A DNA stretch of 64,000 nucleotides, taken from the NCBI GenBank assembly GCA_976226885.1, contig OZ320316.1, forward strand, positions 102,796,001 through 102,860,000, read 5' to 3'. The translations under genes were made by a program, and so were the position numbers. Source of the DNA: Iphione sp. A-MEVVRFRX5 (Eukaryota). Shown piece by piece: positions 9,061 to 60,815 of this stretch. The notes beneath the pieces were generated by a model that was not told the DNA's origin, ran no database searches, and worked only from the letters and a program-made list of their open reading frames with translations. Numbering within the stretch: the stretch's first letter is position 1; the number at the start of each line of letters is the position of its first letter.

Positions 9061-9794
9061 GCATATAGACAGAGCAACCAATGTAGAGAGGAAGAGGACG
9101 AAGATGTCTGTCTTCTAGTCCATGTATATTAAAGGACTTACTATTGCCTTACAAGTGCTCTCAGTTGTCGCGCCTTAAATGGTTTTGAATCGCTGATCCG
9201 ACTAAGCCCATCTGAAGAAGTAAATACGGAGTTGCTCGTCTAGAACACTGAGGGCCTAATGCCCAGACATTAACAGGCTTGCGCTTCACTTAGTTTCAGC
9301 CCTTGTTGATATTCAGTTCACTGCCAAAATTACACGTTCGCTACATCTAAGTTAAGAAAAATGGCCTCCAGCCACAATTCGTCCTTCGAAACATTCGCCA
9401 GCTGAATTTAATCAGCGGAAATGGGATTGCTCACTTTGAAAGGGCCGAAGATACATATTTATATGTATGAATATACTTTTAACATTAGCTCCTGTAGAGG
9501 CATTGTTAATGTATTTCATAAGCAGAACTATAGAAAATCGTATGAACGACGTCAGACGTTTCAAGGGTTTCAAGATAACTTTTCCTCAGTGGAAAGATGC
9601 AAGCAAATCATGGTGAAAGTTCGCTCTGGTACGAGTTGTCCATGGTGCGAGTTGTCTATGGTACGAGTTGTCCCTGGTACGAGTTGCTCATTGTGTGAGT
9701 AGGTTTGTCGAGCCATTCATCTATTGCTTTTCTCTTATGAATCACGACGCACATGCCTGCCAGGCTAGATTTAGTTTATATCATGACTAAATGG

Positions 9795-11200
9795 TCAGGA
9801 CTATCTTGGCCTGAAAAGGTTGACCAGTGGGTGAATGTTAGTATACTACATTCACAGGCTTATATCTCTGTCGTCGACTGACTGCTGTGTTCATATTGAG
9901 CACCAACCATGGTTCATAACATCCCTCCTTGCAAGTATCCCATCCCCTGCTTTCCGCCTTAGATACATGGATTATGATGCTGCAGCAATGCACAGTGTGG
10001 GCAGTTTGGCTAGGGGTGGGTTGACCAATGGGTAAATGTGGGTGTACTACATTTACAGACCTATATCTCAGATGATGAGTGGCCTTCTGCGGTCCTATTG
10101 ACCACTAAGCATGGCGGATATGCTGCCTCCCTTCTAGTATCAAATCTCCAGCTCATATTGCTTACATATGAATCATGATATGTGTCCCTGCCAGCATAAA
10201 TCCAGTTCATGTCCCCACCAAGTGATCAGCACTATCTTGGCCTAACAAATTTGACCGATGGATAAATGTAGGTATACTTCATTTACAGACCTATATCTCA
10301 GTCAGTGACTAACCCCGCTGTGGTCCTATTGACCACCAACCATGGCGGATATGCTGTTCCCTGCTAGTATCAAATCCCCAGCTTGTATTGCTTACATATG
10401 AATCATGATGTGTGTGCCTGCCAGCAGAAATCCAGTTCATGTCCCCGCCAACTGGTCAGCACTATCTTGGCCTGACAAAGTTGACTGATGGGTAAATGTG
10501 GGTGTACTACATTTACAGACTTATATTTCAGTCTAGAGACTGATGTTCTGCAGCCCTATTGACCACCAATCAGAGCAGATATGCTGCCTCCCTGCTAGTA
10601 TCAAATCCCCAGCTTGTATCTCTTACATATGAATCATGATATGTGTCCCTGCTAGCGTAAATCCAGTTCATGTCCCCGCCAAATTGTCAGCACTATCTTG
10701 GCCTGACAAAGTTTACCGATGGGTAAATGTGGGTATACTTCATTTACAGACCTATATCTCAGTCAGTGACTGATGTTCTGTGGTTCTATTGACCACCAAC
10801 CATAGCAGATATGCTGCCTCCCTGCTAGTATCGAATCCCCAGCCAGTATTGCTTACATATGAATCATGATGTGTGTCCCTGCCAGCATAAATCCAGTTCA
10901 TGTCCCCGCCAAGTGTGGTTATATTGATCACCAACCATGGCAGATATGCTGCCTTCCTGCTAGTATAAAATCCCCAGCTTGTATCTCTTACATATAAATC
11001 ATAATATGTGTGCCTGCCAACATAAATCCAGTCCATGTCCCCGTCAAATGGTCAGCGCTATCTTGGCCTGACAAAGTTGACCGATGGGTAAATGTGGGCG
11101 TACTACATTTACAGACCTATATCTCAGTCGGTGGTGACTAACCCCACTGTGGTTCTATTGACCACCAGGCATGGCTGATAACGTCCTTCCTTGAAAGTAT
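9795..11200. repeat. ~230-bp tandem satellite, about 6 diverged units
   Basis: GGGTAAATGTGGGT..ACTACATTTACAGACCTATATCTCAG anchor at ~9831, 10031, 10261, 10491, 10721 and 11085. Confidence 0.9.
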
Positions 11201-11631
11201 CCCATCCCCTCCTTTCTGCCTGGGGGGGGTATATCACTCGCGGAGACGTGCCCAGTCCAGTAAATGACTTTGTATTGATTTCTGTTTTGCTTCCGTCACC
11301 GTGAGCGAGAGAGGGTCCCAGTTCCAAGGTACTACTTTGAAACGACCGGACTGCAAACGTTCAAAAGCGCACCACTGCCCCCCTCCCCCCACCCACCCAC
11401 CCCCTTTCCGCCCGTCACCTACACCTGTTATTCCAGCTCGCTAGGGGTCAGTACTGGGCGATGATATCAGTGTAAGTAAAGAGGTGGGGCTGATCGAATG
11501 GGGAGCGACAAGAAAAACCATATGGTACATGTATAGATTGACTCTGCATGGTGCTGCTGTACTGATCGGGATGTGTGTACTGATCCGCCGCCCCCCCCCC
11601 ACCTCAGAATGGCTTCTGTCAAGGTTAGACA

Positions 11632-34235: not shown

Positions 34236-34241
34236 CTTCTT
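34236..34241 (+). repeat. Left target-site duplication CTTCTT
   Basis: Identical hexamer immediately follows the right terminus (55320-55325); 6-bp TSDs are characteristic of Polinton integrases. Confidence 0.95.
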
Positions 34242-34306
34242 AGTAGTGTGAGGGGAGCAACCTTCAGCTCTCGTTTCGCAGGAAGTGACGTCACCACAGC
34301 AGAGAG
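34242..34306 (+). repeat. Left terminal inverted repeat (65 bp)
   Basis: Exact reverse complement of 55255-55319; similarity continues a few bases (AGAGGTCAA) past an AG-run length difference. Confidence 0.95.
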
Positions 34307-34844
34307 AGAGAGAGGTCAAGGGTCAAGGGTCAAGGGTCGTAGACAGGAAGTGGCGTCATACGTCAGTCACACTTCACACTTCAATAAATATGTCGGGCAA
34401 GTGGAGATAATGATGTAGGTGGAGATGAATAGATAAGAAGGGGGTTGTATCTAGAGTGGAATGTCATAGGCAGGGAATGAAGAGGTCAGATAAGAGTGAT
34501 GTACTCACAGTGTGGAGGATAGGATACTAGAGAGAGAGAGAGAAGTGGTGTTTATAATGAAGGAATACTTGAACGATATTGGTTTTTTTTTTTTGTCGTA
34601 CTGCTTCAGATAGTCAGGTCGTTGTGTAGCGATCCCACTTCACCTCGTTTAATGATTGGAACAGGAACAAATAATGGTGGTGAAAGAGCTACAGGTGTTT
34701 TTTGAACAAAGATGGATCAGACATCGTGGATGACTAATGAGTTAATAAGAACATAAGATAGTACGGCATGTATATATATAACCCTGTACGATGATTGAAT
34801 GGGTAGGATTCGATGTACAAAAACTGCAGCTATACGTACTTATA

Positions 34845-35090
34845 ATGGCTGAGAAGCAAATAGTGGAGGCAAGGAGGTGGTTACGGACTGAGAAGAGTCA
34901 GAAGGAAAGCCGTTGTCAGGACTATGAGGATGGTGAAAGCAGCAGCAAGGTTTCAGTGACAAGGAGGAGGATGAGGAAGAAGAAATTGGTGAAGAGACTG
35001 CGTAGGTGTATGAAAAAACTGAAGAAGATAAAAAAGTCGATCAGGAGGACGAAACAAATGGCAGAGAGGGCTAACTTGTCAAAAGAAGAG
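34845..35090 (+). CDS. Putative exon 1 of spliced pPolB gene (Arg/Lys-rich, MAEKQ...LSKEE)
   Basis: ATG at 34845, open frame to donor GAG|GTGAGT at 35091 (phase 0). Confidence 0.6.
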
Positions 35091-35189
35091 GTGAGTACGT
35101 GTACTGTAAGTTTAGCAAAGTCACACTTGTAGTAGTAAGAGAGCGAGTGAGTGGGTCAGGGAAGTATATATTTGGCATCTTAATTTCAG

Positions 35190-35402
35190 AGGAGTATACT
35201 TAGCGAGTTCATGATGGGATTCGAAGATGAAGCCGTAGGCAGCTGTATGGAGATGGACGAGCCTGAGGGGGTGCAGCAAGTTTGTGTTGAAGAAGAACCA
35301 GTTATTGATGATGGAGTTGTTGTGTTTGAAGAGGCGAGTTGTCCCAGTTACGACGACCTTTCTCAGTTGGATAAAGGAGATTGTTCGAACGTTTTGTCAG
35401 AG
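35190..35402 (+). CDS. Putative exon 2 of spliced pPolB gene (acidic)
   Basis: Acceptor TAATTTCAG| at 35189, in frame with ORF 35211, donor GAG|GTATGT at 35403; 213 nt, phase 0-0. Confidence 0.62.
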
Positions 35403-35625
35403 GTATGTATTGCTTGGTTACAGATCAGCTTGACTCAGAAAGTAAAGTTGAGGTTTTATTAATCAAGTGACACGTAGATAGTTGTAGGTTATGATTGAAA
35501 CTACACACATATATATAATTGATGATCCATGTTAGTAAGTAGCTAAATAGAGTTCATTCAGTATAATGACTTGATTTTCATAAGTGTAGTGCAACTGCGA
35601 GTAACCGCTATTAAATTCATTGTAG

Positions 35626-35826
35626 CAAACGGGTGACGGAGATCAGAACATCGTCAGTAGTTGCAGTCATAGTTCGTCAAAGGTGTCATCATGCAGTGAC
35701 GAGGTAGCTGCAGCAGTAGCATCAATAACACCGCAAAATGTTGTTCAAGGAACGGATGCAGCATCTGTTTTGACGTCAGCAACGGCAGCATCAGCTTGGC
35801 AGGGACAGCTCATATCTCCTGTTCAA
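35626..35826 (+). CDS. Putative exon 3 of spliced pPolB gene (Ser/Ala-rich)
   Basis: Acceptor TTCATTGTAG| at 35625, open and in frame with ORF 35683, donor CAA|GTAAAG at 35827; 201 nt, phase 0-0. Confidence 0.5.
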
Positions 35827-35934
35827 GTAAAGAAGTATTTTGTAGATGAAGTAGAAGTGCAATTGTGGCTACTCGTAAGGATGAAGACTGAAGTCTAACT
35901 GTGCAGTAATGAAAAACGTTTGCTATGTTCATAG

Positions 35935-36018
35935 ATGGCGCCAGAGGTTCTAACAGACATGCCTTCAACATCGGAGCTGTCAAATAGGATATATTCCTGC
36001 GTAGAGACTATTGCACCG
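35935..36018 (+). CDS. Putative exon 4 of spliced pPolB gene (MAPEVLTD...TIAP)
   Basis: Acceptor GTTCATAG| at 35934, 28 open codons, donor CCG|GTAGGT at 36019; phase 0-0. Confidence 0.5.
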
Positions 36019-36275
36019 GTAGGTAGGAACAATGAACAGCTAAACATGTTTGTTAATTGTGATGTACAGTTATAGGTTAAACATGATATAGAGCACGTTG
36101 GTTGGCGCAACATTGTTATTATTATTATTGTCTATTTACAGAGAGAGTAGTGCTCATATCGTAATTCAATAGGTTGATAAAATAAGTAGTGCTTATTAGC
36201 AGGCGTATCATTGTTAGTGCGTGACATGGTATCAGCAGGTTGCTTATAGATGGTATTATTGTTGTCGACTTACAG

Positions 36276-39200
36276 AGAATAGAGCATGAGTGCTCATATT
36301 GCAAGAGGAAATTTGTGTACAAAGCAAACGCAGTCAAGCACAGCGTGAAGTGTGTGGAAAAACAGAAACTGACTTGTGAAGTATGCAGGCGTCGGTTTCA
36401 GACACTGGAGCAGAAAGTAAATCATGTGTCAAGGTTCCATGGCAGAAAGAAGAAAGAAGACAAGGTTCGGTCGTATAAGTGCCGCACGTGCGACAGTTTG
36501 TTCAACTCACGAAGAGATTTGTACATTCATAATGGAGAGCAGCATGGTGGAGGTGATGAAGGTCTACAAAGTGTTCCTTGGCAGAGAGGTGAAGAGCCCT
36601 GGTTGGTGGATGTAGATGCTAACAATGCTGACGCGGGTCAGGTAATAGCACAGAATAAGAGAGAGGAGAGATCGATAGAGTTCAAGAGAGTGTACAATGC
36701 AAACAAGCGACATATCTTGGCACAGCATAGTGAAGGGAGCGTGGCAGCTACATACAACTTCCCTACAAATAACCTGGCCGATGGAGGAGTGGAACTCGCG
36801 AGACATATGGAGGAAGTGTACAACAATGAACAGAGGGCATTTAAAGTTAATGTAGGGTTTGGGGTGATTTTGAGACATGTAGAAACGGACAAGTACAGAT
36901 ACTTTGTGCCGTACAAAAACAGTACAGTTCTGTCAGAGCCTGCAATGGTGTCATCACGTAGAGATATGGATGATGTGATTGAGAGGTTGAAGGAGGTTGA
37001 TACAGACAACTACTTCACTGTTAACAGGCCAGACACGAAGTGGATTGCCGAAGGGGTAGTGAATGTGACATATTTTGTGTCGAGGCTATCGTATCCTTTA
37101 GGAAGTGGATTTTTGCCTCGTTTTCTGAAGTCAAGACCGTACATTGCACCTCTAGATCAGTTTGGTGATGGCAGACCTATAGCGGATGAGCTGTGCGCGT
37201 TCAGGTGCTTAGCCATGTTTGAAGGAAAGAGTACCACAATAGAGAATTGTGTTCTTCAGTACTACCAAAAATGGAGGCAGTTCATAGCCGGAAAGAAAGG
37301 TGTTGACATAGGGGATGATGCTACAAAGTATAGAGGTGTTTCGCTTGACGAATTGTCTGAGTTCGAAGAATGTTTTGAAGTCGGATTGTATGTGTTTGAA
37401 CTGACAAGAGAAAATTCAGTTGTTATGCACTATAGGCCATTTCACAGGTTCAACAGGACGATGTACGTAAATGTATACGAAGGTCACTTATCTTATGTGA
37501 GTGACTTTGCAAGGTATGCTCAAAAGTTTGAGTGTGTGCTGTGTAGGAGATGTTTTAAGACTCGTTTCAACATTGAGAGACACATGAAGTCGTGTCCACT
37601 AAGGACAAGATACGTGTATAAAGGAGGCTTCTACACAAGTCCGCAGACAGTGTTTGAAGAGTTGGATGCAGTAGGCATTGTAGTTCCCGAACAGGACAGG
37701 ACATACAATGATTTTGCAGTGTATGATTGTGAGTCCATGTTAAGGGGAATGCCAGAAGGAGAAAGCCCAAAGTTAAAGTGGGTTCACAGGCATGAGGTAA
37801 TATCTGTGGCAGTTTGCAGCAACGTACCAGGTTATGACAGGCCAGAGTGTTTTATTTCAGGAGACATGGAGGTGTTAGTAGGCAACATGGTGGATTATTT
37901 GGAGAAGATACAAGAGGAGGCAGCTAGGAGAGCAGAAATGAAATGGCATGACGTGTTTGAGCAGTTGGAGGTAATGAAGAAAAGGTTGAGCGAGAGACAG
38001 GCACATGTTACTCAAGCTGTTTCAACATCACCAACGATGCTGGCAAATGAGTGCGAGGCTGATGATAGCCAAGATGAAGGGGAAAGTGAGAATGGATGTG
38101 GAGACAAACAGATGACTACACTACTGACAAGGTTGGAAGAAAGGTTTACGACTTATGCGAATACGTTACCTGTGTTGGGATTTAATTCAGGTAAATATGA
38201 CTTCAATGTGATGAAGGCAGTTCTCCTCAGGCGGCTGAAAATGAGGTGCAGAGAATTATTTGTCATCAAGAGAGAGAACACGTACATAACAGTAGACAAT
38301 GGTACATTGAAATTCTTGGACATCTCACAATATCTCACACCAGGAGTGTCGTATGTGAAGTTCTTGAAGGCCTATGGGGTAGAGGAACAGAAGGGAGTGT
38401 TTTGCTATGAGTACTTGGACAGTCCCGAGAAATTAGCCGTCACTGGCATTCCACCACACGAGGCGTTCTACTCATCAGTGAAGAACAAAAACATTTCAGA
38501 AGAAGAGTATGAAGGCGTGAGAAGGACATGGATTAGTGAAGGGATGCAGACATTGCAAGATTTGCTTGAGTATTACAACAAGTTGGACGTTGGTCCATTT
38601 GTAGAAGCGGTAATACGTTTACAGAAGTTTTATTTTGAACGCGGCATGGACGTGTTCAAGGTTGCAATGTCTGCTCCTGGGGTGGCAAGGCGGTTGCTGT
38701 TCCAGTCTGCGCGGAAGGAAGGGGCGTCATTTCCGACGTTCAGTCACAGAGATGAGGATCTATATCAGGCGTTCAAGAAGAATATAGTCGGAGGTCCTGC
38801 GATTGTTTTTACATGTGCTCATGAGAAGGACGTTACGAATATTCGCGACTCGTTCAACAAGTGTAAAACGATATTGGGTCTGGATGCAAACTCGTTGTAT
38901 CTGGGATGCATTGGCATGGAGCATGCGACGACCACCTATGTGAGGAGACGAGCAAAGACAGGATTTGCCCCAGAGAAGATGTCAGCATCAGTTATGTGCA
39001 TTGTGTGGCTGGAATGGGAAGCCAAGGAGAGGAGGATGATGATTCACCATGCCCAAAACAGGTACGAGGGTGAAGTGAGGATAGGACCGTTCAAAGTTGA
39101 TGGTATTGCTTTTGATACTAACACAGTGTTCGAGTACAATGGCTGCTACTATCATGGGCATACGTGTATGAACGGGAAAATGAAAGAAGTGGAACGCAAG

Positions 39201-41087
39201 AAAAGAGAGAGTAGGACAGCCATGAGGAAGCAGTACATAGAGAGAAACGGTTACACAGTTGTGACGATGGAAGAGTGTAGGTTTGCCCATACGCTGAGGG
39301 ACAGTGCTGAACTAAGAGAGTTCACAGCAAAGTTTTCAACAGCATTTACGCAAAAGTACAGGGGTCGTGTGACAGAAGTCCAGATATTGAACGCTGTGCG
39401 AGAGGGACTATTCTTTGGAGCTCTGGAAGTGGATATTAAGGTGCCAGACACATGGGAGCCGGGGATGGAGAGGGCACTGCAGCCAGCAGATTATTTTGGG
39501 GAGATGTGCCCGCTGTTTGGCAATGCAACTGTGCGCATGGAGGATATAGGAGATCACATGAAGAGACACATGAAGGCAAGCAGGATGTCAGAGAGACCGA
39601 GGAGGTTGTTGGTGGGTGCGTTGAGTGCGAAGAAGACGTTGATACTCTCACATCTCTTGAAGTGGTACTTGAATCATGGTCTGGTTGTATCAAAGATTTA
39701 CCAAACAGTGGAGTTCGTTCCAAGAAAGTGTTTCAGGACATTTGTAGGAGATGTGACGGAAGCAAGGCGACAAGGAGACACAGATGTTAACAAGGCAATT
39801 ATAGCAGATACAATGAAGCTGATCGGAAATTCAGCATATGGCGGAATAATAATGCAGAAAGAAAAACAAAACTGCGTCAAGTACTTCACGAGTACTAGCC
39901 AGGCTGTGTCTGCTGTGAACTCGCCTCGGTTTAGGAGGATGGTGGAGATGAGGGGCTTGTATGAAGTCGAACTGGCAAAGACGAGAATCACACTAGATAT
40001 GCCTGTCTACGTCGGGTTTTCAATCTTACAGTATGCCAAATTGGTGATGTTGTCCTTCTATTACGATTGTGTTGATAGATGGATCAACAGGGAGAAGTAC
40101 GAGTATGTGACCATGGACACTGACAGTGCATACATTGCACTGGCGGAGCCGTCACTAGTAGATGCTATGACAGAGGAGGGAAAGAGAGCATATGAGGCCG
40201 ACACACTGGGGAAGTGTGATGACAAATTGACTCCAGCATGGTTTATGCGCGAGTGCTGTGAAGCTCACCGGAAGTTTGACAGACGCGTACCATGCCTGAT
40301 GAAGGAAGAAGCCAGGGGTGAAAAGATAGTTGCATTAACAAGCAAGACTTATGTGTTGGAGGACAGACGGACATTCCCACCATCAATAAAAATGAGCTGC
40401 AAAGGAGTGTCAAAGGCCCATGTGGACAATGCGTTACAGACATATGAGAGTGTACTCAAGACGCGTCAGAGCAGAGAAGGGAAGAACAAGGGGTTCAGAG
40501 TATGGTTGGGAACAATATGTACGTATGAATTGGTGAGAGACGGCTTCACATATTTCTATGCGAAGCGACGAGTTCATGAGGATGGCATACACACGTCACC
40601 CCTTCAGATAACGCTTTGTCCGTGGGAAGACGTCATGGACGGATACGTAATAATCAGCAGGCCTTGGCATGTTCTACATCCACAGTATATGTGGGGTATG
40701 ACTAATGGATTCATCTCAGCAGAGCACATGTACCTGTACAACATGGCTGTTCACCACGGAGAGCTGGACATAGCGAGGGCGATAGCCGGCTCGTCAGACA
40801 GAGCAGAGTTCAAGGCATATGGAGAAATGGTAGAACAGAACAGGGAGTGGAAGGAATTTGTGAGGTTGCAATCAATGATGGACATATCACGTGAGAAGGT
40901 CAGAATCTTGGGCGCACTTGTGATGAAAGAACTACGTGACGACAGGCGCATTGTTTTCGCCTCCCCCGATAGGTTCTGGGGAGTAGGTATGGACGAATCG
41001 GTGATAGAGCAGACTAGTCCGGAGGAGTTCAGGGGACGCAATAGGTTAGGCGAAGTGTGGGAGTGTGTCAGAGCTGAGTTGAGATAA
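36276..41087 (+). CDS. pPolB: Protein-primed family B DNA polymerase (main exon; zinc fingers, vOTU-like, exonuclease, VSR-like insert, polymerase, C-terminal NADAR-like domain)
   Basis: ORF 36240-41087. ExoI YDCES, ExoII GFNSGKYD, ExoIII YNKLD, motif A LDANSLY, motif B KLIGNSAYG, motif C MDTDS. Acceptor GACTTACAG| at 36275 is in frame; the ORF has no early ATG. Confidence 0.97.
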   Translation, partial: RIEHECSYCKRKFVYKANAVKHSVKCVEKQKLTCEVCRRRFQTLEQKVNHVSRFHGRKKKEDKVRSYKCRTCDSLFNSRRDLYIHNGEQHGGGDEGLQSVPWQRGEEPWLVDVDANNADAGQVIAQNKREERSIEFKRVYNANKRHILAQHSEGSVAATYNFPTNNLADGGVELARHMEEVYNNEQRAFKVNVGFGVILRHVETDKYRYFVPYKNSTVLSEPAMVSSRRDMDDVIERLKEVDTDNYFTVNRPDTKWIAEGVVNVTYFVSRLSYPLGSGFLPRFLKSRPYIAPLDQFGDGRPIADELCAFRCLAMFEGKSTTIENCVLQYYQKWRQFIAGKKGVDIGDDATKYRGVSLDELSEFEECFEVGLYVFELTRENSVVMHYRPFHRFNRTMYVNVYEGHLSYVSDFARYAQKFECVLCRRCFKTRFNIERHMKSCPLRTRYVYKGGFYTSPQTVFEELDAVGIVVPEQDRTYNDFAVYDCESMLRGMPEGESPKLKWVHRHEVISVAVCSNVPGYDRPECFISGDMEVLVGNMVDYLEKIQEEAARRAEMKWHDVFEQLEVMKKRLSERQAHVTQAVSTSPTMLANECEADDSQDEGESENGCGDKQMTTLLTRLEERFTTYANTLPVLGFNSGKYDFNVMKAVLLRRLKMRCRELFVIKRENTYITVDNGTLKFLDISQYLTPGVSYVKFLKAYGVEEQKGVFCYEYLDSPEKLAVTGIPPHEAFYSSVKNKNISEEEYEGVRRTWISEGMQTLQDLLEYYNKLDVGPFVEAVIRLQKFYFERGMDVFKVAMSAPGVARRLLFQSARKEGASFPTFSHRDEDLYQAFKKNIVGGPAIVFTCAHEKDVTNIRDSFNKCKTILGLDANSLYLGCIGMEHATTTYVRRRAKTGFAPEKMSASVMCIVWLEWEAKERRMMIHHAQNRYEGEVRIGPFKVDGIAFDTNTVFEYNGCYYHGHTCMNGKMKEVERKKRESRTAMRKQYIERNGYTVVTMEECRFAHTLRDSAELREFTAKFSTAFTQKYRGRVTEVQILNAVREGLFFGALEVDIKVPDTWEPGMERALQPADYFGEMCPLFGNATVRMEDIGDHMKRHMKASRMSERPRRLLVGALSAKKTLILSHLLKWYLNHGLVVSKIYQTVEFVPRKCFRTFVGDVTEARRQGDTDVNKAIIADTMKLIGNSAYGGIIMQKEKQNCVKYFTSTSQAVSAVNSPRFRRMVEMRGLYEVELAKTRITLDMPVYVGFSILQYAKLVMLSFYYDCVDRWINREKYEYVTMDTDSAYIALAEPSLVDAMTEEGKRAYEADTLGKCDDKLTPAWFMRECCEAHRKFDRRVPCLMKEEARGEKIVALTSKTYVLEDRRTFPPSIKMSCKGVSKAHVDNALQTYESVLKTRQSREGKNKGFRVWLGTICTYELVRDGFTYFYAKRRVHEDGIHTSPLQITLCPWEDVMDGYVIISRPWHVLHPQYMWGMTNGFISAEHMYLYNMAVHHGELDIARAIAGSSDRAEFKAYGEMVEQNREWKEFVRLQSMMDISREKVRILGALVMKELRDDRRIVFASPDRFWGVGMDESVIEQTSPEEFRGRNRLGEVWECVRAELR

Positions 41088-41168
41088 AAAGAGAAGTCAC
41101 TGCTACTACTACTGCAGTCACTGGATGAGCGACACAAATACCACAACGAACAATAACAACGTTGAGCA

Positions 41169-41801
41169 ATGGAGGAAGTACTGATGAGTGAATATAGGTT
41201 TGCAACACCGAGTACAATTATGGTGAGCGGGGCCACGTCATCAGGAAAAACCCGATTTGTAACAAGGTTGATCAGAGAGAGACGTAGGATGTTTGAGTCA
41301 CCTGTGCCGGAGAAGATAGTTTACTGTTATGGCGCATGGCAGGACGTGTTTGATGAGATGATTAGGGAGGGAGGGGTTGAGTTCCGTGAAGGGATCAATG
41401 TGGACGGTATAAAACACGTGATGGGGACATTGTTGATAATAGACGATTTGATGGACGACGCTGTACAGAGTGAGAAGATCAGAGATCTGTTCACTCGCGG
41501 CTCACACCACGACAGGATCACCGTGGTACTCTTGTTGCAAAACCCATTCTGCCAAGGGAAGTGTGCGAAGTCTATTGCACTGAACTCTCAGTACATGGTT
41601 CTGTTCCGTAATCCCCGTGACATACACCAAATAGGAAGACTTGGCAGTCAGCTGGGAATGCCAGAAGTGAAAGAGGCATACAGAGACGCTGTGAAGGAAT
41701 TGTACGGATATTTGGTGATCGATCTCCACCCTCGCAACTCGACAGACGTTAAGTTGACCAGCCACATATTTCCCGGAGAAGAGCTTGTGTGGTACAAATA
41801 G
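41169..41801 (+). CDS. A32/FtsK-like DNA packaging ATPase
   Basis: Walker A GATSSGKT, Walker B LLIIDD, and the LFTRGSHHDRITVVLLLQN motif typical of Polinton ATPases. Confidence 0.95.
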   Translation: MEEVLMSEYRFATPSTIMVSGATSSGKTRFVTRLIRERRRMFESPVPEKIVYCYGAWQDVFDEMIREGGVEFREGINVDGIKHVMGTLLIIDDLMDDAVQSEKIRDLFTRGSHHDRITVVLLLQNPFCQGKCAKSIALNSQYMVLFRNPRDIHQIGRLGSQLGMPEVKEAYRDAVKELYGYLVIDLHPRNSTDVKLTSHIFPGEELVWYK

Positions 41802-41815
41802 GTGTCGGAGAGACG

Positions 41816-42379
41816 ATGTCGCTGTCGCGGTTGAGGGACAGCTCAAGCTTTATTCGCCTGATACTATCAAGCTCGAGTCGGACACAGATCGAGGCTTTGT
41901 TCGATACGGCAACTGTAGGCCAGTTAGATACGATACGAGAAATTGCCCACAACTTGTTGGTGCTGCCAGCAGAAGAAGGCGTTCGAAGGGAAGTAGCGAA
42001 GAGGCGGTCACTCTTGACCAAGTTGGCCAACCGTAGGGTATCGTACCGTTCCAAGTCGGCACTTGTCAGCAAGTACTACCGTCAGCTGTTTCACTTGTTT
42101 CGTATTGTGAGGGACGAGCTGTGGTCATTAACATCGCCTTGTAGTGGTGACGGTTTTGGTGAGGCAGAGGTAGACGACGTACCACCACCACTGCCATCGC
42201 AGCATTGGCCGTTTCCACCACCGCCATCTCGACCTGACAGGCGGCGGCAACAGCCGCAGCAGCAGCAGCATCTCCCAATAGAAGACGCAGTAGTGGACCG
42301 TGCCGACGACAACGGCAACGACGAGGGTTACGACACGACTGACGGTTGCGACGATACTACACCTGCTCTTGCGGCATGA
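41816..42379 (+). CDS. Polinton-type small helical protein with low-complexity tail (187 aa)
   Basis: ATG at 41816 just after ATPase stop. The QLDTIREIAHNLL motif resembles a conserved Polinton protein usually found beside the ATPase; the stop overlaps the next ATG (ATGA). Confidence 0.7.
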   Translation: MSLSRLRDSSSFIRLILSSSSRTQIEALFDTATVGQLDTIREIAHNLLVLPAEEGVRREVAKRRSLLTKLANRRVSYRSKSALVSKYYRQLFHLFRIVRDELWSLTSPCSGDGFGEAEVDDVPPPLPSQHWPFPPPPSRPDRRRQQPQQQQHLPIEDAVVDRADDNGNDEGYDTTDGCDDTTPALAA

Positions 42380-42468
42380 GGAAATTGGTGTGTGTGCCTT
42401 ACGACCGTTATTTGTCCCTTGTGGAATGTCAGCAGCAGCAACAGCAACAGCAACAACACAATAACACC

Positions 42469-42504
<36 letters not shown>

Positions 42505-42783
42505 TCAATAGACCGGCCAGCAACAGTGGCACCATCCTCATTAGTGGTGGAGGAGGAGGAAAAGGAAAAGGAGGGCAGAGGAGGAGGAACGTCGATGCTG
42601 GAATCGGAATTAGAGGGTGACCCGACACCCGCAGCGGCAGCACAAGTGCATGTGCTACGGCCTCAAGTGAGACAGCGAGCGCCGCGACGGAGGGCGCCAC
42701 AAGCACCACCACCGCCGGGCCTTCCGTTGGTAGGTCGCAAAAAGAGGGCGCTTGACTGGACGGCGGGATGGATAAGTATCTGA
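42376..42783 (+). CDS. Polinton small low-complexity protein (MRKLVCVPYDRYLSL...GWISI, 135 aa)
   Basis: ATGA overlap with the upstream ORF and 16-nt overlap with the integrase; N-terminal K-LVP-Y-L-type motif and C-terminal Trp typical of such Polinton ORFs; polyQ/polyS/polyE runs. Confidence 0.65.
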
Positions 42784-43868
42784 GTGGGATCTACTTCGAT
42801 CCCCGTGAACCTGAATCTTTCGGTGGAGTCTTGGCCCTGCATAGGCGCAGTCGGGCAGACGGACGGGCGTATACGCGTCGCCAGATAGAGGAGTGGTTGC
42901 GTGCGCAGGAGGCCTATACTCTGTTCGCCCCATCGAGACTGAGCGGGGGTGTGAAACGTCCGCGGGTAGTCGTATCAGACAAGTTCGATCAGTTTGATGC
43001 AGACACGGCCAATATGTCGACATGGGAAGATTTTAACAGCGGCATTGGCTATTTCCTTGTTGTGATTGACATTTTCACTCGCTATGCGTGGACACGGCTC
43101 CTGCGCAGTCTGAGGGCGAAGGATACGCTTGCCGCACTCCGTTCAGTGATGGATGAGCGCAAATGTCGGGTCCTTCGCACAGATGGTGGGAGTGAGTTCA
43201 ACAACCGCTGGATGCGCCGTTACTTGCTCGACACAGGCGTGAAGCATGTCGTGACGCGCAACGAAGTTAAGGCAAACTATGCGGAACGTTTAATCAAGAC
43301 GCTGAAGACACGCCTTACACGTGACATGTATCACCGTCAGTCTCACATGTGGTCTGAGCGCCTGGCCGACATTACCGATGCTTACAACCGACACTTTCAC
43401 CGCTCCATCAGCACTAGCCCAGCCGTGGCCGCTTCTGATGCCATAGACAAAGTGGACTTATGGCATAGACAATATGGCGACGCTACAACCACCGCCGTGC
43501 GTCCTTTCCGGTTGGACAAGGGTGATGTTGTCCGACTAGCACGTTTCCGTCACCCCTTCACTCGGGCTTATGATGAGCATTGGACGCATGAGCTCTTTGT
43601 CATCACTGGACGGACACGAAGTCAAGGTGTGGCCCAGTACACCATAAAGACTTGGGATAATGAAGCTGTTGAAGGGCGTTTCTATGATGAAGAACTGATG
43701 AAGGTCAACGTTGATGAGCATGCGCGCTACAAAGTGGAGAAAGTTTTGCGAAACAAGAAGGTTGCGGGTGTCGACGGGTTTGTGGTACGCTGGTTGGGCT
43801 GGCCTAGCCGCTATGACTCATGGGTGAGCAAGGATGATTTGAGTGACTTACAGCAGCAGGAGCAATAG
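42768..43868 (+). CDS. INT: Retroviral-like (rve, DDE) integrase with C-terminal chromodomain
   Basis: QFDAD, LRTDGGSEF, NYAERLIKTLK catalytic motifs; chromodomain YKVEKVL...VVRWLGWPSRYDSWV. Confidence 0.97.
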   Translation: MDKYLSGIYFDPREPESFGGVLALHRRSRADGRAYTRRQIEEWLRAQEAYTLFAPSRLSGGVKRPRVVVSDKFDQFDADTANMSTWEDFNSGIGYFLVVIDIFTRYAWTRLLRSLRAKDTLAALRSVMDERKCRVLRTDGGSEFNNRWMRRYLLDTGVKHVVTRNEVKANYAERLIKTLKTRLTRDMYHRQSHMWSERLADITDAYNRHFHRSISTSPAVAASDAIDKVDLWHRQYGDATTTAVRPFRLDKGDVVRLARFRHPFTRAYDEHWTHELFVITGRTRSQGVAQYTIKTWDNEAVEGRFYDEELMKVNVDEHARYKVEKVLRNKKVAGVDGFVVRWLGWPSRYDSWVSKDDLSDLQQQEQ

Positions 43869-43901
43869 TGTCACCATTCTTGTTTCGTCCATTCATCCGA
43901 C

Positions 43902-44312
43902 ATGTACATACTCGCTACTCCCGATTTGAGTAAAAACGCTCACCCAGGCAACACCCGCTCAGACTTTGTCGTGGACCTACAACGCCCGATTGAGTTGATC
44001 GGCAAATGGGAGTGCGCCTTGATCAATGTCTACTTTGACACCCCTTCGTCTGCCGAGCGTGATCTCGATGTCATTATATGCTCTGACCTAGTAGCTAACA
44101 ACTATATGACAGGTACCTTGCGCCCTGCTGTCCGTGTTACAAGGCCGACTTCAGCAGAGTTCGCCACGCCGTGGTACTTGAGAGCTTCCTCGTGTCGTAT
44201 AGAGAGATTTAGAGTATACTGCTCTTCCTTGGACAACAAAAAGGCAGAAGTGCCCCATATCCACCGGGCTGTGTTTCATCTACGACCAAGTCGGTCATTG
44301 CCATCGTCGTGA
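43902..44312 (+). CDS. PX: Minor capsid protein (penton, PX-like), short form (136 aa)
   Basis: N-terminal HPGNTRSDFVVDLQRPIELIGKWECAL matches the Polinton penton N-x4-F-x3-L-x3-I-x-L-x-G-x-WE-x-AL pattern. Confidence 0.8.
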   Translation: MYILATPDLSKNAHPGNTRSDFVVDLQRPIELIGKWECALINVYFDTPSSAERDLDVIICSDLVANNYMTGTLRPAVRVTRPTSAEFATPWYLRASSCRIERFRVYCSSLDNKKAEVPHIHRAVFHLRPSRSLPSS

Positions 44313-44315
44313 GCC

Positions 44316-44621
44316 ATGAACTACGTTCCCTACGTCCCTCGTTCTGATGCCTTCAAGCACACAGTCCGGCGTCGGTCGCACTATGTTGGTAAGGGTCCAC
44401 CGTTGACACTGGTGTCGCCTGTTGAGCAGAGTGTTGAACGGGCTAAGGCCAGCCTTGTCAAGAATGTACCTCTGGTTAAAAACAAGCGAACATCATCTCC
44501 CTCATCACATTGTCCTGCGAAGCAAAAGAGACGACAGACAAAGCAACCGGCGAAGAAGAGGAAGGCACAATCACCCACAAACAAAAAGAAAACGACTACA
44601 CGTAAGTTCCGCAAGCACTAG
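44316..44621 (+). CDS. Basic putative virion core (DNA-condensing) protein (101 aa)
   Basis: YVPY start, YVGKG, LVSPVEQSVERAK motif, Lys/Arg-rich C-terminal half; lies between penton and MCP. Confidence 0.7.
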   Translation: MNYVPYVPRSDAFKHTVRRRSHYVGKGPPLTLVSPVEQSVERAKASLVKNVPLVKNKRTSSPSSHCPAKQKRRQTKQPAKKRKAQSPTNKKKTTTRKFRKH

Positions 44622-44626
44622 TGACC

Positions 44627-46009
44627 ATGACGCATGTGCTTCAGGACTCGGACGATGGCTTTGGGCTTGATCTCGACCTGTTTCATGTGCCACCTACCCA
44701 GACCGGCATTACGGAACAATATGTGAAGGAGTTCTTACCCATCGGAGACTTAAGCCATGGCAGCATAGTCGAGTTTAATGTACCGAACGACTCGCTTGAT
44801 TACATCATGTTACACAAAACTCGCCTCCGCATTGATGTGCAAATTCTGAAAGACGATGATACTCCAATTGGCACTGTAGACAAGGTCGGCTTTATCAACA
44901 TGGCAGCCTCCACCATCTTTCAGCGTATGGAACTTGCTCTGCAACAGACTGTCGTGAACACTGGTGTTGGAGGAGTGTACCCATACAAGGTCATGCTTGA
45001 TACACTCTTCCATGCCGGGTTGTCTGATGAGCTGGGCTGGCTGCGTGTTGCTGGGTATGCAAAGGACAATAACATATACATGGACGACATCAACCGTAAT
45101 ACCGGTCTTGGCACACGGGCAGACAAGACGGCCGGAGGCAAGGTTGCGCGTCTGATGACTCGCCTATTTTCTGGTGTAAGTGACCAGTCACGACCAATAA
45201 TTAACGGTGTGCCAATCAACCTCAAGCTCTATCCTGCATCTGACGCTTTTCGCCTGATCTATCCAGCCCTCACTGCTTATACAACCACAGACGGTGACGG
45301 TGACGGTGAGGGAGGAGGAGGAGGAGGAGGAGGAGGAGGAGGAGCTGTTCGAACATCTAAGACATATCGTCTGAAACTGGTCAGAGCTGTCTTGTTCATT
45401 ACATTTGCACGAGTTCATGAAGGCCTTATCGTTCAGCACCGAGCCCAGCTTGAGAAGTCCCCAGCACTGTACCCATTTCTACGCAGTGACTTACGGGCTT
45501 TCACCGTATCTCAGAACAGCCACGAGTTTGCTACAGAGAACATATTCCAAGACCGTGTACCACTGACAGTCGCCCTTGTTTTGGTTGATGCTGCTGCGTT
45601 TGCTGGCAACCACGAAAGGAACCCATTTGACTTCAAGAACTTCTCGGCCAACTACATATCATTTGAAGTGAACGGAGAGTCGCGCCCCGGCCGCCCCTAT
45701 CAGCCCGACTTTGATGCCGGCCACATTGCAACTCCCTACGCAGCACTGTTCGACTCCTTCTCTAGGTGGTATCGACGCCAACTCCCAGACATTACAGAGT
45801 CTGATTTCACCACTGGTTACACTATCTTCGTATTTGACCTAGATAAGGGACGTGAGAAGGACCTCCTGACTCCACTCCGACGAGGCAACACCCGCCTGAC
45901 TGTGAAGTTTGCAGCTGCTCTCCCTGTCACCATTACAGCATTAGTAGATGCCACGTTTCCTTCACTTATGAGCATTGACCTGGCTCGAAATGTCACTCTC
46001 ACCACCTAG
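44627..46009 (+). CDS. PY: Major capsid protein (double jelly-roll, PY) (460 aa)
   Basis: LDLFHVPPTQ, IVEFNVP, PINLKLYP, NPFDFKNF, GYTIFVFDL and C-terminal IDLARNV motifs of Polinton MCPs. Confidence 0.93.
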   Translation: MTHVLQDSDDGFGLDLDLFHVPPTQTGITEQYVKEFLPIGDLSHGSIVEFNVPNDSLDYIMLHKTRLRIDVQILKDDDTPIGTVDKVGFINMAASTIFQRMELALQQTVVNTGVGGVYPYKVMLDTLFHAGLSDELGWLRVAGYAKDNNIYMDDINRNTGLGTRADKTAGGKVARLMTRLFSGVSDQSRPIINGVPINLKLYPASDAFRLIYPALTAYTTTDGDGDGEGGGGGGGGGGGAVRTSKTYRLKLVRAVLFITFARVHEGLIVQHRAQLEKSPALYPFLRSDLRAFTVSQNSHEFATENIFQDRVPLTVALVLVDAAAFAGNHERNPFDFKNFSANYISFEVNGESRPGRPYQPDFDAGHIATPYAALFDSFSRWYRRQLPDITESDFTTGYTIFVFDLDKGREKDLLTPLRRGNTRLTVKFAAALPVTITALVDATFPSLMSIDLARNVTLTT

Positions 46010-46487
46010 TGCTCTTACAAGCAGTGATATAAGACTTTATCTTGAACCCTATAACGGTCCTACGTGGGTTGACTCATATGAATTGCTCCCCACCCATCCC
46101 TTACCCTGCGTTCCTGTGCCCTATGTGTTTGTCGTAAACACTGACCAGGTTGGCTGTCCTGGTCTTCACTGGGTTGCCATATTAATCTTGCCAACCGACA
46201 TTGAAACTGGTCAACGACAGGTTGGAGAGTTTTTTGACTCTCTTGGGATGCCTCCTCAGCACTACCATCCTCATATTCAACGTTTCCTGTCTACGAACTG
46301 TGCTTGTTACGTTTACTCACATGTACGTGTACAAGGAAATATGCCAGTGTGCGGTCACTTCTGTCTAGCGTATATATACTCACGCTTGCACGGTGAGAGT
46401 TATGAGTCATTCATCCTTTCATTTAGTAACAATTTAGCATGTAATGATCGTGCTGTTGTTGATCACTATTATACTCATCATATCTAA
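45990..46487 (+). CDS. PRO: Adenain-like (C5) cysteine maturation protease (165 aa)
   Basis: VVNTD...PGLHWVAI (His), EFFDSLG (Asp), RVQGNMPVCGHFC (Gln/Cys); overlaps the MCP end by 20 nt. Confidence 0.93.
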   Translation: MSLSPPSALTSSDIRLYLEPYNGPTWVDSYELLPTHPLPCVPVPYVFVVNTDQVGCPGLHWVAILILPTDIETGQRQVGEFFDSLGMPPQHYHPHIQRFLSTNCACYVYSHVRVQGNMPVCGHFCLAYIYSRLHGESYESFILSFSNNLACNDRAVVDHYYTHHI

Positions 46488-46731
46488 CTGGTGTACTCAC
46501 TTGCTCACTCACATGCACGTCGTCCATTTCAATCATCTGCAGTGTGTAATTGCGCCACGACACCATTCGACGTTATGTAATAAGAGACATAGAGCGGGAT
46601 ATAGGTCATATGACACGTATACAGTATTGGTGGATTGAGAAACATTGCTTACAGATGTATACGATGTATTAATGTAATAAAAGTTATGTATACTTTATCA
46701 CTGCTGTGTTGTTTCATGCTTTCGTACCATA

Positions 46732-59454: not shown

Positions 59455-60815
59455 TGCATGTAGACAGTCGACATTACCCGCTACCCACCAACATCCACCA
59501 TCAGCAATATCAGTCACCACTACCAGCCTACCTCCAACCACCACCGCAGTCAGTCATCCACCCACAATTACCACCTACCACTCACCAACACCACCACTGC
59601 CACCTACTTCCACCACTGCCATCAGTCATCCACCCACCCACCACCACCACCACCACTTACCACCTACCACTCATCAACACCACCACTACCTCCCACCTAC
59701 CACCCACTCACCACCGCCACCTGCCTACCTCCAACCACGACCGCCATCAGTCATCCACCCACCATTACCACCTACCACTCACCAACACCACCACTGCCAC
59801 CTACTTCCACATGTAGACAGTCGACATTACCCGCTACCCACCAACATCCACCATCAGCAATATCAGTCACCAGCACCAGCCTACCTCCAACCACCACTGC
59901 CAGCAGTCATCTACCCACCATTACCACCTACTATTCACCAACAACACCACTGCCACCTACTTCCACCACTGCCTTCAGTCATCCATCCACCCACCCACCA
60001 CCACCACCACCTCCCACCTACCACTCACCAACACCACCACTACCTACCACCTACCACCCACTCACCACCACCAGCCTACCTCCAACCACCACCACCGTCA
60101 GTCATCCACCCACAATTACCACCATTACCACCACCTACCTTTCACCAACACCACCATTGCCACCTACTTCCACTACCGTCACCAGCACCACCACCCTACC
60201 ACCACCATAACCACTGCCACCTACCTTCCACTGCCACCACTACCTACCACCTACCACCACCAGCCTACCTCCAACCACCACCACCGTCAGTCATCAACAC
60301 CACCATTACCTACCACCTACCACCCACTCACCACCAGCCTACCTCCAACCACAACTGCCGTCAGTCATCCACCCACCATTCCCACTATCACTACCACCTT
60401 CCACTCACCAACACCACCACTTCCACCTACTTCCACCACCGTCACCAGCACCACCACCCCACCACCACCATAACCACTGCCACCTACCTTCCACTGCCAC
60501 CACTACCTACCACCACCAGCCTACCTCCAACCACCACCACCGTCAGTCATTGACCCACCATTACCACCACCTACTATTCACCAACACCACCACTGCCACC
60601 TACTTTCACCACTCTCACCAGCACCACCACCCCACCACCACCATAACCACTGCCACCTACCTTCTGCCACCACTACCTACCACCTACCACCGACTCACCA
60701 CCACCACTGCCACCTACTGCCACCTTCCTCCTCCTCCTCCTCCTCTACCACCTACCACTTACCACCCACCTCCAGTCGCCTCCACCCACCACTAACCCAC
60801 AGAGTAAGTTAAACA
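59455..60815. repeat. (ACC)n-derived compound minisatellite with ~350-bp higher-order duplication
   Basis: ATGTAGACAGTCGACATTACCCGCTACCCACCAACATCC at ~59458 and ~59811; the rest is ACC/CCA variants. Confidence 0.9.

Follow-up and report, generated by a model that had tools for sequence, protein, structure and literature searches.

A predicted spliced multi-exon leader in the protein-primed polymerase gene of a Maverick/Polinton from Iphione sp.

Where does a polymerase gene begin when its long reading frame has no early start codon? This question is raised by a 64,000-nucleotide stretch from Iphione sp. A-MEVVRFRX5 (contig OZ320316.1, positions 102,796,001 to 102,860,000; hereafter, the window). 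The long frame of its protein-primed polymerase (pPolB) is open from position 36225, and the earliest in-frame Met, at 36807, lies behind three zinc fingers. An earlier note had pointed to the missing early ATG, which our examination bears out, and had proposed a gene of five exons joined by four phase-0 introns. The coordinates and lengths of these introns and exons (given below), their phase, the stop-free exons and the 1851-aa product all proved exact on recheck.

A complete Maverick/Polinton of about 21 kb (34242-55319) contains the polymerase locus as its left arm. The element is flanked by a 6-bp target-site duplication (TSD), CTTCTT, with the same hexamer on both sides (34236-34241 and 55320-55325), and is bounded by terminal inverted repeats (TIRs) of 65 nt. 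The left TIR (34242-34306, + strand) starts with AGTAGT and is 100% complementary to the right one (55255-55319, - strand). TIRs ending in (AGT)2, a Maverick trait as defined in the available text of PMC8097293, thus occur here together with a 6-bp TSD, a pPolB, an integrase and a packaging ATPase. The core genes lie downstream on the + strand (41166-46487) and include the packaging ATPase, unnamed ORFs, an rve integrase-chromodomain protein and presumed capsids and protease. In Pfam searches, the integrase ORF matched rve (E 3.6e-8) plus a chromodomain, and the ATPase ORF, with a visible Walker A motif, matched Pox_A32 at E 9.8e-4, under the curated cut-off. The presumed capsid and protease ORFs fit in size and order without a Pfam match; their names (minor capsid, major capsid, protease) are our assumption from gene order and general knowledge of the family. 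From the end of the polymerase through the core block (41087-46681), the + strand holds a single AATAAA, at 46676, behind the core genes, which suggests co-terminal transcripts. Further right, two accessory ORFs, 47106-48320 (- strand) and 48752-49774 (+ strand), resemble membrane glycoproteins, with signal-peptide-like starts, Thr/Ser-rich stalks and hydrophobic segments; a Pfam search with the former gave no match. A long Pro/Thr-rich ORF at 49985-51625 (+ strand) is N-masked in part; masked N are absent from the leader and the polymerase. The host flanks carry tandem and dispersed repeats (20351-21290, 9736-11221 and 59457-60812), among them an array of 64-nt units, units of ~230 nt and CCA-rich repeats.

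The gene model lies on the + strand. Exon 1 (34845-35090, 246 nt, 82 aa) opens with the N-terminal helix motif M[AT]EKQ[VI], continues with a basic helical tract and ends in L[ST]xxE. Intron 1 (35091-35189, 99 nt, GAG/GTGAGT..TTTCAG) splits a conserved predicted helix, which resumes in exon 2 (35190-35402, 213 nt, 71 aa) with RxxL[AS]EF[LM]xGF, followed by an acidic tract. After intron 2 (35403-35625, 223 nt, GAG/GTATGT..TTGTAG), exon 3 (35626-35826, 201 nt, 67 aa) has a QxGxG-type start and is Ser/Ala-rich, with an alternative in-frame end at 35874. Intron 3 (35827-35934, 108 nt, CAA/GTAAAG..TCATAG), with an alternative donor at 35875, leads to exon 4 (35935-36018, 84 nt, 28 aa), which contains PSTS. 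Intron 4 (36019-36275, 257 nt, CCG/GTAGGT..TTACAG) contains an internal duplicated acceptor ending at 36141 and precedes exon 5 (36276-41087, 4812 nt, 1603 aa), which extends from the zinc fingers through a NADAR domain. All four introns are phase 0. Exons 1-4 are multiples of three and free of stops, while in every intron the frame of the preceding exon runs into stops; the predicted protein is a 248-aa leader plus 1603 aa, 1851 aa in total. The predicted introns have traits of the U2 type, namely GT-AG ends, pyrimidine-rich acceptors, conserved ends and a free interior, and the GC content, itself part of the model score, is 0.44 in exons versus 0.27 in introns. A TATA-like run (34771-34780, + strand) 65-74 nt before the ATG is a candidate promoter element; in 14 of 19 families, the 150 nt before the ATG include a TATA-like hexamer, its distance varying (raw count).

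An exon-chaining search without phase preference, with the ATG anchored by hand and splice matrices that are approximations, recovered the window model with a score of 61.2. Among six block-shuffled controls of the window, four yielded no model and two scored 17-18. The search favoured the in-frame intron-3 donor at 35875 (CTC/GTAAGG, giving a 60-nt intron), while donor 35827 agrees with the longer third introns and the frequent Gln-ending exons of other families; on these sequence features, the donor may be either.

The window family has eight further copies in the 1.18-Gb genome, 89-100% identical over the matched pieces, one of them split in two loci. In all eight, the ATG is retained, as is each of the eight splice dinucleotides. 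From the ATG up to exon 5, the copies differ by ten distinct indels. Introns hold nine, of which seven break the frame and one is a 65-nt insertion, and the tenth adds 3 nt in frame to exon 2; taken alone, the family has too few indels for a significant contrast (Fisher p 0.3). One sister copy has a stop in exon 5. The pN/pS ratio is 0.46 in the leader exons (8 synonymous and 14 replacement changes) versus 0.18 at the start of exon 5; judged from these substitutions, constraint on the leader amino acids is weak. Five copies that are 99-100% alike carry the introns.

A polymerase protein search of the same genome gave at least 133 matches, from which 40, hand-picked across the score range, yielded 18 further families whose polymerases are ~55-63% identical to that of the window. 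The genome thus holds at least 133 polymerase matches and at least 19 families, with many frames open near 1600 aa, and its Maverick population is unusually diverse and recently active. In blastn, the DNA upstream in the other families did not match that of the window, yet the leader peptides are homologous across families. A phase-0 CAG or TAG precedes the first zinc-finger Cys by 15-27 nt in 18 of 19 families, at an identical position in 12. A Met between this last acceptor and the first Cys occurs in only 6 of 18 families, scattered on a poorly resolved tree. Since the window family and 11 others of the 18 have no Met before the first Cys, their polymerases need upstream coding exons. With patterns written after inspection of the data, 40 of 41 loci showed the exon-2 motif RxxL[AS]EF[LM] right behind YAG, 39 an M[AT]EKQ[VI]-like exon-1 start, and 37 the exon-3 start pattern behind AG; the end of exon 1 reads L[ST]xxE. 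In one family, L051 (G000:C15:27223889-27228243), the leader is shortened, lacks the basic tract and the exon-2 motif, and has a duplicated donor region.

Applied to the 19 families, the anchored chaining search modelled four introns in 13, three in four and five in two, although several modelled exons, in L062, L067, L069 and L082, are clearly wrong; without the anchor, the search had placed spurious micro-exons upstream in many families, with mixed phases. Among the modelled introns, 72 of 74 are phase 0, against 48 of 115 in the shuffle null (phases 48/34/33; six block-shuffled controls per family), and across families no shuffled control matched the real score. Ten multi-copy families (2-6 copies each, 32 loci) served for an indel test. 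Exons had 25 in-frame indels and 3 that were not, many of them due to triplet-repeat slippage, whereas introns had 11 and 54, respectively (Fisher p 3.9e-11). Splice sites were kept in 94 of 94 acceptors and 90 of 94 donors, the four misses all concerning one modelled donor. The comparison across copies proposed in the earlier note therefore came out in favour of splicing, with the sites kept in 8/8 sister copies and frame-breaking indels numbering 54 in introns versus 3 in exons. In a tree with four outgroup proteins, the 19 families form one clade, so that the exon layout counts as one inherited trait and not as many independent events. Because five near-identical copies and diverged families have introns at the same positions, the introns travel with the transposing elements.

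The window thus has splice sites, open exons and no Met before the zinc fingers, and the layout is conserved across 19 families. Splicing of the polymerase leader, at predicted junctions, is very probable on this comparative evidence. We give a probability of roughly 0.88 to the full reading in which the protein-primed polymerase gene starts at ATG 34845, the four phase-0 introns are spliced out and the 248-aa leader is fused to exon 5. Host Pol II would transcribe the gene from a promoter near the left TIR, and the host spliceosome would join the five exons constitutively into one mRNA, the leader supplying the start codon ahead of a zinc finger-terminal protein-vOTU-polymerase-NADAR chain. 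The proposal of a spliceosome-dependent five-exon gene missed by ORF-based annotation has gained strong comparative support, with its junctions still predicted.

Exons 1-4 could instead be a separate small regulatory gene, similar to E1A or to the 'Oncoid' ORFs, that ends within intron 4, with the polymerase made from its own mRNA or from a minor splice form. Within intron 4 (36115-36165), the acceptor and opening codons of exon 5 recur in degenerate form, the acceptor being followed by Arg-Glu-stop. Use of this duplicate acceptor, at 36141, would switch between a leader-only product of ~250 aa and the fusion; this acceptor outscores that at 36275 (9.0 vs 7.0) and, by pattern match, is present in the window and in 7 of 8 sister copies. 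A separate gene would also suit the six families with a Met just behind the last acceptor, and adintoviruses have 'Oncoid' ORFs upstream of PolB, according to the part of PMC8502044 available. Against it stand the window family and the 11 others that have no Met ahead of the first Cys. Only two other families (L077 and L065) have an internal acceptor of similar strength with a stop behind it, the window's intron 4 has no AATAAA, and none of the 19 modelled leaders has LxCxE, which, with an adjacent CxxC, would mark an Rb-binding protein of the Oncoid/E1A type. We consider this reading possible but unlikely. As a general trait, the leader-only switch was ruled out, being mostly specific to the window family.

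Equally unlikely, in our estimate, is that the all-phase-0 layout is kept for exon skipping, which would produce polymerase isoforms with different leaders. The 72 phase-0 introns among 74, the 4 of 19 families with only three modelled introns and the existence of alternative in-frame donors (35875 in the window) would fit such a role. Animal introns in general are most often phase 0. The phase here is inherited, moreover, and 19 families in one clade represent one historical pattern, while skipping exon 2 would break the conserved helix split by intron 1. The families with three modelled introns indicate that exon loss was tolerated over evolution, not that skipping is regulated. The earlier suggestion that symmetric exons allow skipping therefore holds by arithmetic only, the layout being inherited and the second spliced gene of the element having another phase. 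This second predicted gene (54577-53404, - strand) consists of an exon at 54577-54312, a phase-2 intron at 54311-54152 and an exon at 54151-53404. The GT-AG intron of 160 nt keeps both sites in 8/8 copies, and all indels from the ATG to the covered part of its exon 2 are intronic; neither exon matches Pfam. With a phase-2 intron in a second gene, splicing appears as a habit of the element and phase 0 as not universal.

It is very unlikely that the leader is a captured fragment of a host gene or that the introns were gained copy by copy after integration, as part of decay. Precedents for both exist in the available parts of two papers: host cargo genes with introns lie near the left TIR of nematode Mavericks (10.1101/2022.07.12.499685), and introners invade dinoflagellate polinton-like elements (PMC11957031). 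However, exon 1 matched only the nine copies of its own family in the genome and nothing convincing among 1.84 billion proteins, and no host gene was found whose exons are homologous and whose introns lie at matching positions. Gain after integration is contradicted by intron positions common to families ~55-63% identical and by the introns of the five copies that are 99-100% alike. Least probable of all is that nothing is spliced and that the polymerase is translated from Met 36807 or from a non-AUG codon, with the upstream sites arising by chance: the frame is indeed open from 36225, and the core genes of vertebrate Mavericks and one nematode Maverick are reported as intronless in the accessible text of PMC8097293 and 10.1101/2022.07.12.499685, but a start at 36807 would leave out the zinc fingers as well as a portion of the terminal-protein-like domain, and chance cannot account for the indel, phase and motif patterns. 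Splicing of a shared leader to the downstream core genes was considered separately and is unsupported, each of them having its own early Met and acceptors that are only middling.

Outside this genome, 196 pattern matches in metagenomes gave 10 loci, five of which were inspected upstream. One (L095) has a phase-0 exon of 72 nt and a GT-AG intron of 378 nt before the zinc fingers, and another (L093) a GT-AG intron of 120 nt with an uncertain upstream frame; L091 and L092 have their own Met, and the frame of L094 is disrupted. None of 64 pattern matches in viral contigs was confirmed. The named database homologues of the polymerase are molluscan, at 32-33% identity, and have their start annotated at a Met close to the zinc fingers, so that not every polymerase of this kind requires the leader.

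Exon 5 encodes, in order, three C2H2-type zinc fingers (aa 6-90), whose Cys and His are invariant in 23 aligned proteins, a terminal-protein-like region (~155-273), a vOTU region (~281-413), exonuclease and polymerase motifs, present in order, and NADAR. The polymerase gave no Pfam match to PF03175 at E<0.1, and its fold matches were to adintovirus, MELD and mavirus polymerases. An alignment-based structure model of residues 1-520 (pLDDT 84.5) resembled, after the zinc fingers, Y-family little-finger domains at ~155-273 (Z 5.4, rmsd 3.9, 97 aligned) and then OTU domains at ~281-413 (Z 8.8, rmsd 3.2, 119 aligned). A Y-family little-finger fold is compared with the terminal protein (TP) in the available part of PMC11161782. 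Single-sequence fold prediction was unusable (pLDDT 35.6), and a Foldseek search against the PDB returned no match at E<=0.001. The Z values are middling, and the order and folds agree with the description in that available text, which supports a modelled TP-vOTU arrangement ahead of the exonuclease. The C-terminal NADAR domain (aa 1478-1603, window 40707-41084, E 9e-13) is likewise present in homologues P0001, P0003 and P0007; a literature search by title for NADAR with polintons returned only unrelated-looking papers.

The leader itself comprises basic helices, the short conserved helix across intron 1, the acidic tract, a Ser/Gly-rich linker and a PSTS-type motif. Exons 1-4 have no Pfam match, and an exon 1 profile searched against 1.84 billion representative proteins retrieved one repetitive match and nothing convincing. 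If the gene model holds, the leader is a previously unseen protein module, with no database homologue. The PSTS-type motif, which has the A/PxxS form of USP7/MATH-domain ligands, is found in 16 of 19 modelled leaders, a raw count in Ser/Gly-rich sequence, and in two abalone homologues PSTS is present between the zinc fingers; in the available text of PMC6955280, it is a USP7-binding motif of MDM2 and vIRF-2. The basic region of exon 1 would provide nuclear or nucleic-acid targeting, and the exon 1/2 junction helix, with the acidic tract, would be a short conserved docking helix. The PSTS-type motif would bind a host MATH/TRAF-domain ubiquitin enzyme (USP7-like), tuning polymerase stability, and exon 3 might be cleaved at its QxGxG-type start. 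We tentatively propose, at somewhat less than even odds, that the leader is a mostly disordered arm contributing start codon, targeting, docking helix and putative USP7-like binding. Rather improbable is a broader scheme in which a whole lineage of invertebrate Mavericks would encode an unannotated multi-exon regulatory protein in frame with the polymerase, and in which host alternative splicing (skipped exons or the intron-4 acceptor with its stop) and deubiquitinase binding via PSTS would set the balance between a replication-competent polymerase and a stand-alone leader, in a small-t/large-T- or E1A-like manner. If such a module existed, transposition would be tied to the host splicing state, for instance, to the germline only.

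Should the five-exon model hold, a large family has polymerases with a wrongly annotated N-terminus, the lack of an early ATG need not mark a copy as defective, and the elements, like adenoviruses, rely on transcription by Pol II in the nucleus and on the spliceosome. The exact predicted junctions bear on when and where Mavericks are expressed. Among the titles and abstract openings searched, no description of a spliced pPolB leader was found. Printed introns in polinton-like elements are introner insertions (PMC11957031, text available in part) and group I introns (PMC12220804). The spliced multi-exon leader, as predicted here, is a new variant of Maverick polymerase gene structure.

Compared with animal Mavericks/Polintons (adintoviruses) as described in the available text of PMC8097293 and PMC8502044, the window element is alike in its AGTAGT-ended TIRs, 6-bp TSD, length of ~21 kb, pPolB, A32-like ATPase, rve integrase and many genome copies. 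In the parts of these sources available, Barreat & Katzourakis saw no introns in intact vertebrate Mavericks, in agreement with Kapitonov and Jurka 2006 (PMC8097293), Widen et al. describe intronless core genes and intron-bearing cargo (10.1101/2022.07.12.499685), and Starrett et al. annotated adintoviruses by ORFs (PMC8502044). The window element, with its predicted introns, departs from these intronless core ORFs. Exon 5 has the same TP-vOTU order as the TP-vOTU-EXO-PALM polymerase of Polintons in the accessible part of Krupovic et al. 2024 (PMC11161782), where introns and zinc fingers have no mention, and the window protein has three zinc fingers and a 248-aa spliced leader in addition, before the TP. 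The adintovirus 'Oncoid' ORFs, as far as the available text of PMC8502044 goes, occupy the same place between the left TIR and PolB and contain short linear motifs, as the leader does. An Oncoid, however, is a free ORF, whereas the window leader has neither LxCxE nor, in any of its exons, paired CxxC and is predicted to be spliced in frame to the polymerase. The closest working analogue, by analogy with the accessible description in PMC11304566, is the adenovirus E2B unit (pTP and Ad-pol), of the same lineage, in which several 5' exons are likewise spliced to a large terminal exon. In E2B, two genes share the 5' exons, which for the most part are untranslated, whereas the window has four predicted coding exons (248 aa) and carries TP and polymerase in one ORF.
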